Shown here in pieces: positions 1 to 12,000 of a stretch of DNA of 64,000 nt. The stretch is from a candidate division WOR-3 bacterium. Lineage in GTDB: Bacteria > Hydrothermota > 32-111. Within the stretch, counting starts at the first letter, position 1, and each line of letters opens with the position of its first letter. Made by a program: the position numbers. The DNA lies in NCBI GenBank assembly GCA_039804105.1, contig JBDRZU010000001.1, forward strand, positions 736,001 to 800,000. The letters run 5' to 3'.

Positions 1-3000
1 AAGAACAGCATCAAATGATGGTAACCTTTTGAGTATATCATCGAATTCCATCCTTCTTTTTTCTATCTGATCCATCAAGGATGATGTATTCGACTGTGTA
101 ATTGATACTTCATCTGTTGTTTCCCCATTTCTATACATAACAGTCCCAATCTTCTCAATAGAAAGGTTGTACAATGCCTCTTCGCCTGTAAAAGAGTTGT
201 AAACAGCATGCTTTGGTAAACCTTTTTCAAAAAATATTTTTCCCTCTTTATTATCAATCTGAAAAATCAAAACACCTGTTCTCTCCCTCGATGATATCAA
301 ACTTATAAATTCAACTGGACTGAAGATTTCAAGATTCGCTTTTAAATCTACCTTTTCTTTATCCATTCCTCATCCTTATATTTTTGAATTAAATTCTGCA
401 ACTTTTCATCTTCAAAATCTAATTCAACTTCTTCCCATTCAAAATCTAACTCCCTAAAAAAAATTTTATAAAACACAGAAGATATATTTTCGATATTATA
501 AGTTAAACCTGTTAAATTTTCAATATTGTTTGAAAAATTTTTTCCATAAATTTTTTCCTGCGGAACAATACTCTCTTTTACAAGAATCGTTCCCTGTTGT
601 AAAAAATTTGTTTCTGAGAATGTTTGTGCACTTCCAACAATCTTTTCTCCTTTGTAACTGATCTCATAAACCGATTGAGATCCAAAACAGTTTGCGATAA
701 AGTTTTCCTTTTTTTCTCCCTGTGTTAGTTTCGCATCTATTTTTAACTCTTTAAAACCTTTGATAAAAATTTCTGCTATCCTTTTATACCTGTCTAAAAG
801 TCCATAATTTTTTCCAAAATGTTCAATGTTTCCAACAAAGGAATATGTCAGATCACCACTATGAAGAACTGCCCTTCCACCCGTTATCCTTCGTGTGATA
901 TCAATCTTTTCCTTTATAACATAATCATAATCGATACCAACATTGTACCTCTGATTGTATCCTATCGTTATTGAAGGTTTTGAAAATGAATAGAATCTAA
1001 AAAATATTGTATCAATATTTTTATAAGCCCATTCATCTATAGCCATATTTGTATAAACATCAAAAGCAGAGTAATTCAAAAAATAACCTTTCATTTTAAA
1101 ATTTTAAGCCAATCAGATAAAAGGAAATAGATTCTTCCAATAAGAAGTGAAATACGTGCCATCACAGTATAACCAAAAGATGCACCGAATGCAACCATGA
1201 TAAAGGTTATTCCTATTTTTGATCCCCATTTTAAAACACCTTTCTGTTCTTTTGAAAAATAGAAATAGATGAGTGTTGTTAAAACTCCAAAAATTATCAA
1301 AAAATTGTTAAAAGTTTCGAAATTGAAACCTGTTATCGTAACAAGTGTTGCTTGAACCTGTGGAAGTATAAATCCCTGTATCGCACCTGTAACACCAAGT
1401 CCAGCTCCAATACCAACTGTAAAAGCGATAGACCATCTTGAAAGCCAAGCAATATTAGGGAACCATCTAGTTAACATGATTATTCCAAAAAATGCAGGAA
1501 TCAACAGAATAAACTCTTTGTTTTTTATCATCGGATCAAGAAGCATTGGTTGTATAACATAAGCCCAAGTATAGATAAGCCAATATCCAGCTGTTATCCC
1601 AACATAGAGATGCTCTGCAAATTTATAGAAAGGGTTATCCTTATACAGAAAAGAATATATAAAAAGGGTCAAACCAGCAGCTATCCATATTCCAATGGTC
1701 GTTCCCATTATTTTCCTCCTTCTTTACTTTTTGTTCTCTTCTCTATGAAATACGCTATATTTCCTAAAATGATGAAAAGTATTATAACAAGATGAGAATA
1801 TGATTGCGATGCCATTCCAGCAACAGCAATATCAGGTTTACCAACAAGCACTTCATATTCAGCAGCTCCCTTCATTCCACCGACAAGTCCAACGATCTGG
1901 CCTGACTGATAGAAATAGTAAGCATCTGGAGCAGAAACAGCATTTAAAGCGAGTGCTATTTTCTGTTTGAATCTTCCTCCAGCATATTCGATCCAGACAA
2001 GATATGTTGCTCCTGCCTCAAGACCAACAAGAAGTGCTATATCGTTATAGTTATGCACATTCTTCATCATCGGGAAAGAATCGAGTGGAACATTTCGATA
2101 ATCAACTTTGAAATAATCTCTTATTTCCTTTCCAATTCCAACAATCTGTGCAACATATCCGGGTCTATAACCAAGGTTAATATAATCGACTCCATAAACA
2201 GCACCCATCTCCTTAGCAATCTTTTCAAGACCCATAGTTCCAAGGGGTGCTCCCAACTGCCATTGGACTATTAGTATAGGTTTCAGTTTATTTCTAAAAA
2301 GTTGTCTTAAAAGTGCTTCTAAAAATGGTTGTTGTTCAGGCATCGATGCTGCATCATAATCAATAGATATCATCACATTGCTACCTTCTGGTAAATTTTC
2401 GATATAATCATAAACATCCTTAACAGGTTTTGATGGAACAACTGGAAATTTTGGTTTCAAAAGTAAAGGAAGAATAACAACAATTGCAATGAATATATAT
2501 ATGAATCTTCTATCGACCTTTAAAAGTTTTAAAAAGATATTCATAATGACTCCTTATGAAAGATAACTTCTTTCAATACCTAAAATTATTCTTATTGAAA
2601 CACCCAAAGCACCGAGAGAAATTCCAAGTCCAATTCCTCTTTTTGCAGCCATCTGCGGAACCTGCATGATCCATTCCGTGAACTTTGGAAGATAAGGTGA
2701 AATCTGTTCTCCCAGAGGAACTCTTCCAAGCATAACTATTATCGCTGTTATCAGAAGAAGTGTAGCATCAAAATTTCTCGCTCTAAAAGCTCTATATGCA
2801 GCTGATGCTATAAAGAATGCAAGAAGAGAAAACATAGTTGCCTGAAGTGGAACTATAAAATAGTTGTATATGTATGTAAAATATGACTTATCATCAAACG
2901 CTGTTCCAAACCTGACAGTTTCAACTATTCCAACAACAACTGTAGCAACAAAACCAAAAATCAACACAAGAGAAAAAAACCAGTTCTCATCTTTTCTTTT

Positions 3001-9000: not shown

Positions 9001-12000
9001 CCATTTATTTCTCAGGATAGACATTTAACGCTTTAATCCATTTTTTTAACTTCTCTACCCTTTCATTATCATTTTCAGGCAGATTGAAAGGTCTTCTTCC
9101 CCTTGCATCAACTATAACCCCAACAACTCCACCTTCAAGTTCCGCTTCTATCTCTTTACCTTTACCATTTCCAAGATCGAGCCCTTTTGATGGAGTGATA
9201 ATCGCTTTCACCTTTTTGTTGAGTTCAAGTGGAATAACTCCCATATCTCCAAAATTGAAACTGTATTCTTTTCCTTCAAATTTTATTTTTACAGCTTCCT
9301 GCCCTTCTTTTATGTTTCCTATCGGTGCAATACATGAACCCAACCTTATCAAACAATCCTTTTCAAAAACTTCAGTTGCTGCCTGTTCATGGACTGTTGA
9401 CAGAACACCAAGTTGTGGCATCATGAATATTGAATCAACAGTTAACATCGTTATCCCTTCAGGTAAAAAAGCATCTATCATCATCAAAGCTGACTGCACT
9501 CTTCTTGGAGCATGAGAAAGAACACCACCTGAACCAACGATTAGATTCAGTGTCAGCATGTTCACAAGCGTTTCACCTGTACTCGTTTGTTCGAAAGCAT
9601 CGGAAATTGTTCTTTCCTTCTGGACTCCCTTTAAACCAACAGCCATCGTCTTATGTTGTTCTAATGCCAATCTTAATGCTTCTCTTGATATCGCCTGTTC
9701 TATCTGTAATTCATCAAGAGTTGATGGAATGGTTGTTGGTCTTATCATCTTATTTCTTATTCTGTTCCTCAAATCCTTTTCATCCATATGAAATGGAACC
9801 CATCTCATTATATTTTTTAAACCTGCTTCTTTCACAACATTTGATATAGAGTAACTCATTCCCAGGTTTGCTGAAACTGTTCTATTGAAAGTGTTTTGGA
9901 AATAGGAGAATACATCTGTTGTTGCTCCACCTATATCAACACCAAGAACTTCTATCTTATCCCTTTTACCAATCGTTTCTATCAAAAGTCCAACAGCACC
10001 AGGTGTTGGCATAATTGGTACATCAGTCATATCCATAAGTTTTTTGTATCCAGGTGCCTGAGCCATCACATGTTCCATAAAAAGATCATGTATCTTATCT
10101 CTTGCTGGCTTCAAATTTTCTTTTTCAAGTGTTGGTCTTAGATTTTCAACTATGTAAAGTGCTGTTTTCTTTTCAAGTCGTTCTTTTATTTCTTCAACAG
10201 CTTTATTGTTTCCAGCATATATAACAGGGAGTTTGTATCCAGCACCAAATCTTGGTTTCGGATCAGCTGCCTGTATAATCTCTGCGAGTTGAACAACATG
10301 TGTTATAGTCCCTCCGTCGGTTCCACCTGAAAGAAGTATCATATCGGGTCTTAAGGTTCTGATCCTTTTTATCCTCTCATGATCCATTCTCTTATCGTTT
10401 GTTGCTATAACATCCATCACTATTGAACCAGCACCGAGTGCTGCTCTTGCTGCTGATTCTGCTGACATTTTATCCACAACACCGGCAACCATCATCTGTA
10501 AACCACCACCTGCTGATGATGTTGAGATATAGATATCTACACCATCACCTTCTGCTTTCTCTCTCTTTATTATTTTGTCTCCATCAAGAATTTTTATCTC
10601 AGCAAGTTCTTCAACCTCTTTTATAGCGTTGAGAACACCTTTTGTAACATCCTCATAAGGTGCCTCAACCGTTGTTGGTGCTTCACCTCTAACTATCAAA
10701 CGATACTCATTATCTCTTTTCTCTATTAAAATAGCTTTAGTTGTGGTGGATCCACAATCGGTTGCAAGTATTCGTGTGATTTGATCCTTCTCTTTCATTT
10801 ATCCTCCTTAATATCCTTCTTGTTTCTCTTATTTGTATTTTCAAATTCCTCAATATATTTTATTAGTTTCTCAACAGAATCTCTTTCTTCAAAAATCAAA
10901 GATGCTTCACGGTATTCAGATATGTTGAAAAATGTTAAAATAATTGGTTCCAAAAATATCATTATCTGAGCACTTATAAAATTCATAGGTTTTATCGATT
11001 CCAGAAACATTATCGCTGGAGCGGTTAATCCCCTTTTGACTATACTTACTGCAATCTTTTTTAGAATCTCCTCTTTTCTTTCAAGAGGTATCTCTTTCGG
11101 ACTTACAGGCTGAAAACTCTTATCCATTATTTTCCCTATACCAGTTAACATAAAGATTTTTTAAAGCGTATATATCATCAGGTCTTGAAACTGGAGTGTT
11201 TGATGGAGCATTTTTAACTTTTTCGGGTTCATTTTTTGCTTCCTCATCTATTCTTTTCATCGCTTCGATAAAACCATCAAGAGTTTCTTTTGATTCAGTT
11301 TCTGTTGGTTCAATCATGATCGCCTCAGAAACTATAAGCGGGAAATAAACTGTTGGTGCATGGAATCCATAATCGAGCAGACGTTTTGCTATATCGAGTG
11401 TTGTTATATTGTAGTCCTTTTTATGCTTTCTTCCACTGAAAACGACCTCGTGCATCGTTTCTGTCTTATATGGTAAATCGTATATATCCTGAAGTTTTCT
11501 TTTTATATAGTTTGCATTCACTATCGCCATCTGAGTTGCTTCAGTAAGTCCATCTCTTCCCATTATTTTCAAATATGCCCATGCTCTCACCATTATGTTA
11601 ACATTACCATAAAAAGAATGCAATGAACCTATCGAGTTTTTAGGATAATCAAGGTAATATTTCCCATTTTCAAATTTCACAATGTATGGTGGTAAAAATT
11701 CTTTCAACTTTTCAACAACTGCAACACCACCAGCACCAGGTCCACCACCTCCATGTGGTGTCGAAAATGTTTTATGCAGATTCAGATGCAGAATATCAAA
11801 ACCTATTTTACCTGGTTTGACGATTCCCATCAAAGCGTTCATGTTTGCACCGTCCATATATATCAGGCCACCTTTACCATGAACTATTTCGGAAATCTTT
11901 TCTATTTTACTTTCAAAAATTCCTAAAGTGTTGGGATTCGTTATCATTATTCCTGCAGTATCTTCATCCATGTTTTTTTCAAGATCCTCAAGATCTATCT

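Follow-up and report, generated by a model that had tools for sequence, protein, structure and literature searches.

The window analysed here is a stretch of 64,000 nucleotides from a candidate division WOR-3 bacterium (GenBank assembly GCA_039804105.1, contig JBDRZU010000001.1, positions 736,001 to 800,000). ORF calling confirmed ten co-directional ORFs on its minus strand at 1091-10798, with every gene of the initial annotation present. The unit starts one gene earlier than had been proposed, however, as an eleventh gene, sm118, was missed. The conserved system consists of eleven tightly packed genes: a soluble module (sm118, the GlmL/MutL-family actin-fold ATPase MutL597, and BSH373) and a membrane cassette, A-B-C-D, that occurs twice. 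The features, in the direction of transcription, are as follows.

12601..12629, minus strand: best sigma-70-like site of the region, upstream of gcvPB (TTGACA-17-TAAAAT)
11120..12571, minus strand: gcvPB, context only (NF003346, 703 bits against a cut-off of 441)
10795..11151, minus strand: sm118, 118 aa, first gene of the soluble module (ORF, and conservation upstream of the ATPase)
9005..10798, minus strand: MutL597, 597 aa (PF13941)
7872..8993, minus strand: BSH373, 373 aa, soluble (AF2 model and structure matches)
6656..7861, minus strand: A1, DUF6754 subunit of cassette type 1 (PF20539)
5970..6647, minus strand: B1, polytopic membrane protein with 4-6 TM helices (alignment of 19 homologues)
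5107..5973, minus strand: C1, bitopic membrane protein (alignment of 17 homologues)
4502..5107, minus strand: D1, polytopic membrane protein with 4 or more TM helices (alignment of 16 homologues)
3204..4493, minus strand: A2, second DUF6754 subunit, cassette type 2 (PF20539)
2554..3192, minus strand: B2, cassette type 2 (45% identity to B1)
1708..2544, minus strand: C2, cassette type 2 (36% identity to C1)
1091..1708, minus strand: D2, cassette type 2 (54% identity to D1)
348..1094, minus strand: lipoate-protein ligase gene, context only (LplA-B_cat, 4.9e-27; 4-bp overlap with D2)

The first gene of this long transcription unit is gcvPB, which overlaps sm118 by 32 bp; sm118 in turn overlaps the start of the ATPase gene by 4 bp. 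The intergenic gaps are 11 bp or less, or are overlaps, and so leave no room for intergenic promoters. The longest ORF of C1 extends to 6099; the homologues and the Atlas record begin at the ATG at 5973, a start that gives an ATGA overlap with B1. The sigma-70-like site upstream of gcvPB fits at 11 of 12 positions and is a consensus match only; such sites are not in excess in the region (60 in total, against 50.2 in shuffles, sd 7.7).

MutL597 is a member of the MutL family, as had been noted (PF13941, 5.8e-128, with the model covered over its full length). Its actin-fold ATPase occupies residues 10-482, after which the protein continues for about 115 aa in a conserved C-terminal part. Identity to 23 homologues is 54-89%, mean column identity across phyla is 68%, and none of the 23 sequences departs from the phosphate-1, phosphate-2 and adenosine motifs (TDCGSTTTK, GVDIGGATTD and SGG.LSHAP). 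With its nucleotide-binding motifs intact, MutL597 is predicted to be a competent ATPase. A role as a glutamate-mutase chaperone, which the initial annotation had already discounted, was rejected: the protein reaches 229 of the 475 bits that the GlmL equivalog model requires, and the glutamate mutase E subunit (PF06368) was not found in this 85%-complete genome. The scores also lie below the cut-offs of the Or-4 model (218 versus 600 bits) and of TIGR01319 glmL_fam (165 versus 204 bits).

The small protein sm118 matches no Pfam family and has a single weak hydrophobic stretch by hydropathy, at residues 59-77. At 21 of 28 related loci tblastn detects it upstream of the ATPase gene, and it is also present in a second phylum (BLASTP E 5e-13 and 6e-15).

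The AF2 model of BSH373 (pLDDT 92.7) contains a barrel-sandwich hybrid (about 10-125), a swivelling beta/beta/alpha domain (about 130-300) and a KOW/SH3-like domain (308-373). The barrel-sandwich region had been recognized before, the other two domains had not. In VIA-align comparisons the N-terminal part matches NqrA (Z 7.7 over 64 residues) and RnfC (Z 7.5), the middle matches the His domain of rifampin phosphotransferase (Z 9.1), PTS enzyme I (Z 8.9) and RraA (Z 8.9), and the C-terminus matches the KOW domains of Spt5/NusG (Z 8-9). The swivelling domain of the model resembles those that move in PEP-utilising enzymes (Z 8.9-9.1). In a profile comparison, BSH373 did not match the PPDK and enzyme-I domains of this genome itself. 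Pfam matches are all below threshold (Biotin_lipoyl, 20.5 bits versus 22.1, and RnfC_N), and one relative has weak PTS_EIIA_1 and Peptidase_M23 matches in the hybrid barrel. The alignment contains no invariant His or Lys, and neither a His nor a Cys is conserved as a carrier residue; for want of a conserved Lys, the earlier lipoyl/biotinyl hint comes to nothing. BSH373 is widespread, with relatives in 2687 clusters (50% identity) at E<=0.001, and is 51-62% identical in bins of Cloacimonadota, Fermentibacteria, Edwardsbacteria and Eisenbacteria, in line with the roughly 60% first reported across several candidate phyla.

A1 and A2 both belong to DUF6754, as annotated (PF20539; 2.1e-117 with 391 bits and 9e-112 with 373 bits, cut-off 27), and the other seven of the original ten proteins have no Pfam family above cut-off, again as stated. 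A1 consists of a signal or anchor helix, an exported Fn3 domain (residues 36-133, Z about 10; titin Fn3 profile match 3e-16), a TM helix, the cytoplasmic DUF6754 domain and a C-terminal TM helix. Its model has a pLDDT of 66.4, falling below 50 over residues 270-353 in the DUF6754 part, and so gives neither a fold for this part nor a docking surface. At its shortest, the exported part of A has about 110 aa. A search gave 751 homologues with lengths of 703-2005 aa; in the ones listed, the only Pfam domains are Fn3 and DUF6754. C1 comprises an N-terminal TM helix, a soluble alpha/beta domain of about 220 aa and a C-terminal TM helix, with the soluble domain predicted to lie outside the cell membrane from K/R counts (positive-inside rule). 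Conserved motifs are PMQATMFSLLAF..ASAAYRAFRAR and GIER.YLGGG in B1, and YSFLYKDNPFYKFAEH and FGASFGYTVMARISLLIGR in D1. Searches of B, C, D and the DUF6754 domain in Pfam, NCBIfam and PDB sequences were empty and gave no transporter-family homology; in particular, B1 and C1 have no Pfam or PDB sequence match and D1 no PDB sequence match, and the Atlas neighbours of C1 are all "hypothetical". Profile comparison showed D1 to be unrelated to B.

Hydropathy gave 3/4/2/4 TM-like segments for A/B/C/D of cassette 1 and 3/6/2/4 for cassette 2 (with the C-terminal helix of C, where two windows overlap, counted once), reproducing the earlier counts. Our alignments of the two cassettes (A 38%, B 45%, C 36% and D 54% identity) are close to the 40/44/35/52% reported at first. 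In a quick tree, B2 falls in a type-2 clade (SH-aLRT 95), and A2 joins the second cassette of Cloacimonadota and a cassette embedded in V-ATPase operons. Cassette types 1 and 2 are ancient and split before TA06, Cloacimonadota and Edwardsbacteria diverged. Examined genomes have 1 to 5 diverged cassettes, often in tandem, and usually a single ATPase module.

That these genes belong to a single conserved system, and do not stand side by side by chance, is supported by co-occurrence, by the same operon in a second phylum and by ATPase-BSH373 fusions. Among 151 genomes of the second phylum, DUF6754 was found in 42 and BSH373 in 40, together in 39 of the 43 with either (DUF6754 only in 3, BSH373 only in 1, neither in 108); these are related genomes, many of them incomplete bins, so the counts are not independent events. 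The full operon sm118-ATPase-BSH373-A-B-C-D recurs there, and 20 DUF6754 loci include ten with ATPase-BSH373-A in a row and three with BSH373-A. Full-length fusions of the ATPase and BSH373 make up about 49 of the 120 long homologue clusters listed. All five tested genomes in which the ATPase locus lacks a cassette have two to four DUF6754 genes elsewhere. The system is strongly conserved and is not known to have been studied: no paper was found in the literature for DUF6754, PF20539, PF13941, TIGR01319 or "glutamate mutase L" with "membrane". The initial observation holds, apart from the gene that it overlooked, and its reading as an undescribed membrane machine is supported in part.

The gene upstream of the system here, gcvPB, directly precedes sm118-MutL-BSH373 at 19 of 28 related loci, which belong to several candidate phyla. 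A lipoate-protein ligase gene lies downstream in TA06-type and Edwardsbacteria-type loci, and an SHMT-GcvT gene is upstream of BSH373 in one locus (L069). Together with the sub-threshold Biotin_lipoyl match, this could mean that the soluble module of sm118, ATPase and BSH373 works for the glycine cleavage system and that the membrane cassettes are unrelated passengers. We consider this highly improbable, given that BSH373 lacks a conserved lysine, that the operons seen in the second phylum all lack gcvPB, and that BSH373 tracks DUF6754 and usually directly precedes A.

Other neighbours point to the cell envelope. ExbB-ExbD(-TonB) genes adjoin the system in L042 and L049/L058, the cluster of L054 includes genes for a PD40 (TolB-like) and an OmpA-family protein, LptF/G and a DegT aminotransferase adjoin the double cassette in L062, and GT2 and PIG-L genes recur in L073-L075. 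Given also that domains of both A and C are exposed outside the membrane, and that many homologues of A have a long exported part, A-B-C-D could be an inner-membrane platform that acts across the periplasm with Tol-Pal/TonB-type systems, for instance in moving or anchoring outer-membrane or surface material, with the ATPase module as its power source or regulator. This seems unlikely, if not without merit: the neighbours are common genes, each confined to a sublineage (no single family recurs across the second phylum), and diverged multi-copy cassettes speak more for a range of substrates than for one task in the envelope.

In one phylum, 15 of 19 genomes have a DUF6754 gene about 0.6 kb or less behind the gene for V-ATPase subunit C, and in two operons read gene by gene the full cassette sits between subunits C and F. 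This embedded cassette is the orthologue type of the second cassette in the window. The ntp operon of Enterococcus hirae also carries a cation-uptake gene, and B and D have invariant charged residues at the level of the alignment. The cassette, at least type 2, might therefore translocate or gate Na+, K+ or H+ together with the rotary V/A-type ATPase, in which case the actin-fold ATPase module would be a regulator. We regard this as quite unlikely, since the embedding is seen in one phylum only and the V-ATPase of this genome is about 420 kb away from the system, several diverged copies and large variable exported domains would be unusual for ion carriers, and there is no likeness to any ion-transport family.

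The embedded cassette could also use the ion gradient in place of ATP, and this bears on a further possibility, to which we likewise give little credence: that ATPase-BSH373 is a maintenance chaperone, a role like that proposed for GlmL towards glutamate mutase, and assembles, loads or reactivates A-B-C-D without energising each cycle, the cassette being a secondary transporter or membrane enzyme. One ATPase module serves several cassettes, and an actin-fold ATPase is likewise paired with a swivelling domain, as an insertion, in the diol dehydratase reactivase DdrA. Those relatives of the ATPase that have been characterised, all in the GlmL/MutL family (229 bits to the GlmL model), are described as reactivating chaperones and not motors (PMC4682846). 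However, the extreme conservation of the ATPase argues against such a role, its almost constant presence together with the cassette points to a stoichiometric core component, and no cofactor-dependent enzyme is recognisable in A-D by Pfam.

We tentatively favour a modular ATP-driven transporter of a new kind, based on anatomy and context. In this scenario, sm118, the actin-fold ATPase and BSH373 would form a cytoplasmic module, and one shared ATPase unit would dock via BSH373 and the DUF6754 domain onto several substrate-specific A-B-C-D units and drive them. A would contribute the exported Fn3 domain and the very conserved cytoplasmic DUF6754 domain, C the domain on the outer face, and B and D the polytopic part, while BSH373 may act as a mobile adaptor by means of its swivelling domain. 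Multiple diverged cassettes and the variable exported part of A suggest a modular, substrate-facing device, and transport-type neighbours (ExbB-ExbD(-TonB), an Opp peptide transporter flanking the system in L072, the V-ATPase operon, gcvPB and SHMT-GcvT) are consistent with this tentative reading. Docking, ATP coupling, transport, its direction and its substrate are all inferred; the context weakly favours uptake of a small nitrogen-rich nutrient, for instance a glycine- or peptide-related compound. Weighing against a transporter are the lack of transporter-family homology, a DUF6754 model that shows no docking surface, ATPase relatives that are described as chaperones, heterogeneous neighbours and a missing gcvPB link in the second phylum, and a riboswitch search that found no riboswitch giving a ligand.

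With regard to known systems, MutL597 shares the Pfam family and intact actin-fold motifs of GlmL/MutL from coenzyme-B12-dependent glutamate mutase (PF13941; NF040745, TIGR01319), but has the extra conserved C-terminal domain of about 115 aa and is always paired, often fused, with BSH373 and tied to membrane cassettes. DdrA combines the same two elements that here lie in two chains (or in fusions); in the present system, however, the swivelling domain is in a separate protein, between the barrel-sandwich region and the KOW domain, the partner is a membrane complex rather than a B12 enzyme, and DdrA itself is absent from the sequence and fold match lists of BSH373. A1 and A2 are clear members of Pfam DUF6754, but this is a bare catalogue entry with no function assigned, and no curated model was found that covers the system around it (sm118, the ATPase, BSH373, B, C and D). 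BSH373 is similar to NqrA/RnfC of Na+-NQR and Rnf in its N-terminal barrel-sandwich hybrid and, like them, would serve as the soluble subunit of a set of small membrane proteins, some polytopic and some bitopic; the fold match is limited to one small domain, however, B and D have no Rnf-Nqr Pfam match and no invariant cysteine, and no motif for flavin or Fe-S was recognised. The present system differs from ECF transporters in having no ABC ATPase, from the PTS in that BSH373 lacks a conserved His or Cys carrier residue, and from both in that the A-D membrane subunits match neither's families. By analogy, it may nevertheless be likened to ECF transporters and the PTS (enzyme I, EIIA) in its plan of one soluble energiser with several diverged membrane units, and to the PTS carriers in that BSH373 has both of their fold types, a swivelling domain like that of enzyme I (Z 8.9) and a hybrid barrel.

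The ten co-directional genes that the initial annotation placed at 1091-10798 are ten minus-strand open reading frames (ORFs), separated by gaps of at most 11 bp or overlapping by 1-4 bp; the window itself spans contig positions 736001-800000. They encode a 597-aa actin-fold protein of the GlmL/MutL family (the ATPase), a 373-aa soluble protein (BSH373) and two copies of a four-gene membrane cassette, A-B-C-D, in which A is the DUF6754 subunit. Pfam recognises only three of the ten ORFs (the 597-aa MutL protein and the 401-aa and 429-aa DUF6754 proteins). The tight packing extends to both sides of this row.

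Features flanking the ten ORFs
348-1094, minus strand: lipoate-protein ligase gene, downstream, tight packing continues
Downstream side of the same tightly packed row: PATAN-type gene
10795-11151, minus strand: ORF for a 118-aa protein (sm118), upstream of the ATPase gene and overlapping it by 4 bp
11120-12571, minus strand: gcvPB (NF003346, 703 bits), upstream, in the same tight packing
12629-12601, minus strand: sigma-70-like site just upstream of gcvPB, the best on this strand; consensus match only

The gcvPB gene opens a long minus-strand unit; directly upstream there is no gcvPA, gcvH or gcvT, and the next gene is on the opposite strand (12720-13490). As first proposed, the two four-gene sets are paralogous, with aligned identities of 38% for A, 45% for B, 36% for C and 54% for D, and hydropathy analysis reproduced the numbers of transmembrane helices originally listed for them. 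The reported lack of a glutamate mutase also held, in that PF06368 (mutase E subunit) has no match in this genome, which is 85% complete.

To define the extent of the system, 28 loci encoding relatives of BSH373 were fetched and the proteins of the window were mapped onto them; here and in the surveys below, most of the genomes are uncultured bins. In 25 of these loci the BSH373 gene directly follows that of the ATPase; two of the remaining three are contigs that begin at the BSH373 gene, and in the last (L010:10001-11122, 62% identical) the gene stands alone among unrelated genes, without an ATPase or cassette nearby. Upstream of the ATPase, sm118 is encoded in 21 of the 28 loci, and gcvPB precedes sm118 in 19. 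Ten loci continue with an A-B-C-D cassette (twice in the TA06-type, once in Fermentibacteria), and 13 have none downstream despite at least 3 kb of sequence there. All five tested genomes of such cassette-less loci carry DUF6754 genes elsewhere, two to four each and often as tandem sets about 3.4 kb apart.

A second phylum, entered through one locus, has the whole order sm118-ATPase-BSH373-A-B-C-D without gcvPB; its sm118 homologues are weak and were confirmed by BLASTP. Among 151 genomes of this phylum, DUF6754 occurs in 42 and BSH373 in 40, with both in 39, DUF6754 alone in three, BSH373 alone in one and neither in 108. These counts are not independent events, since many of the genomes are incomplete bins related to each other, yet the pattern of co-occurrence is strong despite both. 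A single operon is present in several complete genomes of 4-7 Mb from this phylum, among them those of L048-L051. Twenty loci around DUF6754 genes of the same phylum comprise ten with ATPase, BSH373 and A in a row, three with BSH373 and A lacking the ATPase, one with a permuted order and six with cassettes alone. The permuted locus (L076) reads sm118, A, B, C, D, ATPase, BSH373 on one strand; evidently the modules can change their order and still stay together. From these surveys we take the core to be sm118, the ATPase, BSH373 and at least one cassette, and regard gcvPB and lplA as lineage-specific company. Full-length fusions of the ATPase and BSH373 of about 1000 aa account for about 49 of the 120 long BSH373 homologues listed, two of them checked by Pfam. 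It is well supported that these genes encode one machine, in which a shared soluble ATPase unit serves exchangeable membrane units. Its distribution takes in many bacterial phyla.

Several variants were observed alongside these arrangements. At L030:144-962, the place directly upstream of ATPase-BSH373 is taken not by sm118 but by a D-like gene that is extended at its N-terminus, and in this genome another copy of BSH373 precedes a cassette (L044). A second, more distant fused family (P0200-P0268, about 950-1060 aa; for example P0218) combines a MutL-type ATPase with barrel-sandwich repeats and with the swivelling domain known from BSH373 (TEGFG ... GRTQIRAGVTRP), with no KOW domain at the end. 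Some of these fusions have an N-terminal XRE-type helix-turn-helix or zinc ribbon, and they were found in Cloacimonadota, Edwardsbacteria, Zixibacteria and Aegiribacteria bins. Partial BSH373 matches in the second-phylum survey, several with in-frame stops, probably come from this family. One apparent BSH373-A fusion (P0151) was set aside as evidence, because it is a single sequence with its end cut off and the signal peptide of A in mid-protein, and may be a read-through.

The ATPase matches Pfam MutL (PF13941) over the full length of the model (5.8e-128, positions 1-450). Among 23 homologues from several phyla, which are 54-89% identical, the phosphate-1, phosphate-2 and adenosine motifs of the actin fold are invariant, and the homologues share a conserved extension of about 115 aa at the C-terminus. 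A chaperone-type role is proposed for GlmL in PMC4682846, and the ATPase pair could have a similar role here. The family relationship is consistent with this. The protein lies below all curated GlmL-type cut-offs, scoring 228.9 bits against 475 for the GlmL equivalog NF040745 and 165 against 204 for TIGR01319, and its gene has those of sm118 and BSH373 as neighbours, not those of GlmS and GlmE, the subunits of glutamate mutase. We consider a chaperone-type role improbable. Corrinoid uptake or loading, an idea drawn from the B12-chaperone relatives and the TonB neighbours, was rejected: cassettes in several copies are at odds with it, and neither positions 1-16000 of the window nor seven operon loci showed a riboswitch, be it for cobalamin or another ligand.

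BSH373 belongs to a family of 2687 clusters at 50% identity (E<=0.001). The barrel-sandwich nature first ascribed to it was confirmed for the N-terminal part of the AF2 model (pLDDT 92.7), one of three parts. In fold searches with this model, where the middling Z values indicate fold and not function, the N-terminal barrel-sandwich hybrid resembles NqrA (Z 7.7) and RnfC (Z 7.5). The middle is a swivelling beta/beta/alpha domain, similar to the His domain of rifampin phosphotransferase (Z 9.1), PTS enzyme I and RraA (both Z 8.9), the small subunit of aconitase X (Z 8.3) and the C-terminal domain of Geobacillus pyruvate kinase (Z 7.8). The C-terminal part is a KOW/SH3-like barrel that matches Spt5/NusG KOW domains (Z 8.2-9.1, rmsd 1.2-1.9 over 50-54 residues), and the relative P0128 has a Pfam KOW match.

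Across 57 BSH373 sequences, R21, T281, R284, R289, N367, E369 and many glycines are invariant, and no His, Lys or Cys is conserved, Lys being absent from both the invariant and the 90%-conserved columns. Because no His or Lys is conserved, BSH373 is neither a phosphohistidine nor a lipoyl/biotinyl carrier. The latter would need a conserved, modifiable Lys at the hairpin tip, and the Biotin_lipoyl Pfam match is below cut-off. A phosphorelay of enzyme-I-like swivel and EIIA-like barrel was rejected for want of a conserved His or Cys and because hhalign against the genome's own PPDK and enzyme-I domains gave a probability below 1%. The PEP-utiliser phosphohistidine domain (PF00391) has no Pfam match in BSH373 despite the fold similarity (Z 8.9-9.1), and pairing NGATQIRAG of BSH373 with GGxTSH is at odds with secondary structure.

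Both A subunits match Pfam DUF6754 (PF20539) far above the cut-off of 27: the 401-aa A1 with 391.2 bits (2.1e-117) and the 429-aa A2 with 372.8 bits (9e-112). A consists of a signal or anchor helix, a fibronectin type III (Fn3) domain, a transmembrane helix, the DUF6754 domain and a last transmembrane helix. The Fn3 fold (residues 36-133) is found with Z 10.0-10.5, and titin Fn3 profiles match with E 3e-16. The DUF6754 part is very conserved (E186, D254, E296, E302, C328, D329, E335 and E336 are among the invariant residues) and is predicted to alternate strands and helices; the model of A, built from 27 sequences, has a pLDDT of 66.4, falling below 50 over residues 270-353, and both fold searches with it were filled by Fn3-domain matches. 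Longer exported parts are common, with 751 homologues of 703-2005 aa, whose Pfam domains, among the matches listed, are Fn3 and DUF6754 only. B and D are polytopic, and C has one helix at each end and, by the positive-inside rule, a domain of about 220 aa that is predicted to lie outside. Profile comparison found no similarity between B and D or between A and C. In sequence searches against solved structures, neither the ATPase nor BSH373 had a match, and the same holds for B, C, D and the DUF6754 part of A. The only Atlas clusters matched by A1 and C1 were those to which they belong, unnamed or labelled DUF6754.

A careful tree of A and a quick tree of B separate two cassette types. The first cassette of the window falls with those that come first in TA06 and Cloacimonadota (100/97). 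The second joins the second one of a Cloacimonadota genome and one found in Edwardsbacteria-type genomes, with support of 97/96 and 85/90 in the A tree and an SH-aLRT of 95 in the B tree. The duplication therefore predates these phyla, and both types were kept.

We tentatively favour an ATP-driven modular transporter, its function being inferred and its mechanism hypothetical. The grounds are that the membrane unit has two polytopic subunits and domains on both faces of the membrane, that it has been multiplied and diversified, especially outside, and that it comes with only one ATPase unit, which is highly conserved and includes an adaptor with a mobile domain. Opp genes surround the operon in L072.

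Gene neighbourhoods bear on this and on the other readings. The type-2 cassette of Edwardsbacteria-type genomes is embedded in a V/A-type ATPase operon whose genes run I, c, E, C, A-B-C-D, F ... A. The DUF6754 gene starts no more than about 0.6 kb after the subunit C gene in 15 of 19 genomes of this phylum; of the other four, one breaks off where the contig ends and three show no such gene. A complete cassette between the genes for subunits C and F was read in L045 and L046. This placement would suit an ion-handling unit tied to the V-ATPase, a role that we regard as improbable; in the genome of the window, the V-ATPase is far from the system.

Other neighbours would suit an envelope machine that works with Tol/TonB-type systems. 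ExbB-ExbD(-TonB) genes lie directly upstream of two cassettes in a Cloacimonadota genome and adjoin the system in two genomes of the second phylum. In L054, a PD40 (TolB-like) beta-propeller gene (724-1794) lies between the ATPase and BSH373 genes, and an OmpA-family gene (9041-9805) lies between two cassettes with A subunits of about 1300 aa. Elsewhere, LptF/G stands beside L062. No neighbour family was general across the second phylum (113 flanking ORFs at 20 loci), and we think such an envelope role unlikely.

Several neighbours point to glycine and one-carbon metabolism. They include gcvPB and lplA, syntenic with the system in the 28-locus mapping, a DAO-family oxidoreductase gene after a triple cassette, and, in the second phylum, a 1517-aa ORF with serine hydroxymethyltransferase and aminomethyltransferase (GcvT) domains directly upstream of BSH373-A-B-C-D (L069:13695-18248, minus strand). 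An accessory role in glycine cleavage, which would explain such company, seems very improbable to us, the whole order of the second phylum being free of gcvPB. In Fermentibacteria (L014 and L015), gcvPB is preceded by a weakly GcvPB-like ORF and two further unannotated ORFs; the GcvPB-like one (23% identity in L014) is probably gcvPA.

The proteins of this system are among the best conserved of these genomes, yet none has a studied relative in a membrane role. Source records name them 'hypothetical', 'DUF6754 domain-containing', 'fibronectin type III domain-containing', 'glutamate mutase L' or 'TIGR01319 family', and a search of the full-text literature, with subscription journals mostly outside its coverage, returned no publication on DUF6754/PF20539, PF13941, TIGR01319, or glutamate mutase L in connection with membranes, and only unrelated papers on GlmL as an uncharacterized actin-type ATPase. 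If the system is a transporter, it would bring a new energy-coupling principle to membrane biology, and seven protein families would gain names across thousands of genomes, most of them uncultured. Should it instead be a complex served by a chaperone or linked to ions, it would still connect a membrane function with an orphan branch of the GlmL family. The natural ATPase-BSH373 fusions and the V-type ATPase-operon cassette of one phylum offer experimental handles, as do the two ancient cassette types through a comparison of their specificity.

Among known systems, a complex like Rnf or Na+-NQR has subunits of similar size; the likeness to NqrA and RnfC is confined to the small N-terminal barrel of BSH373; it was rejected because the membrane subunits have no Rnf-Nqr family match and B and D have no invariant Cys. 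ABC, ECF and other known primary transporters were rejected because no ATPase or permease family of theirs is recognisable in the eleven proteins, for none of which Pfam or NCBIfam has a transporter family. The modular transporter that we favour could, more doubtfully, be a class of primary active transporters that is the first to run on an actin-fold ATPase and not on a P-loop or P-type enzyme. In such a class, one very conserved ATPase-adaptor unit (sm118, the ATPase and the swivel-domain protein BSH373) would connect with any of a family of membrane units, interchangeable and made of four proteins each, and the exported Fn3-type heads would set the substrate choice of each unit.
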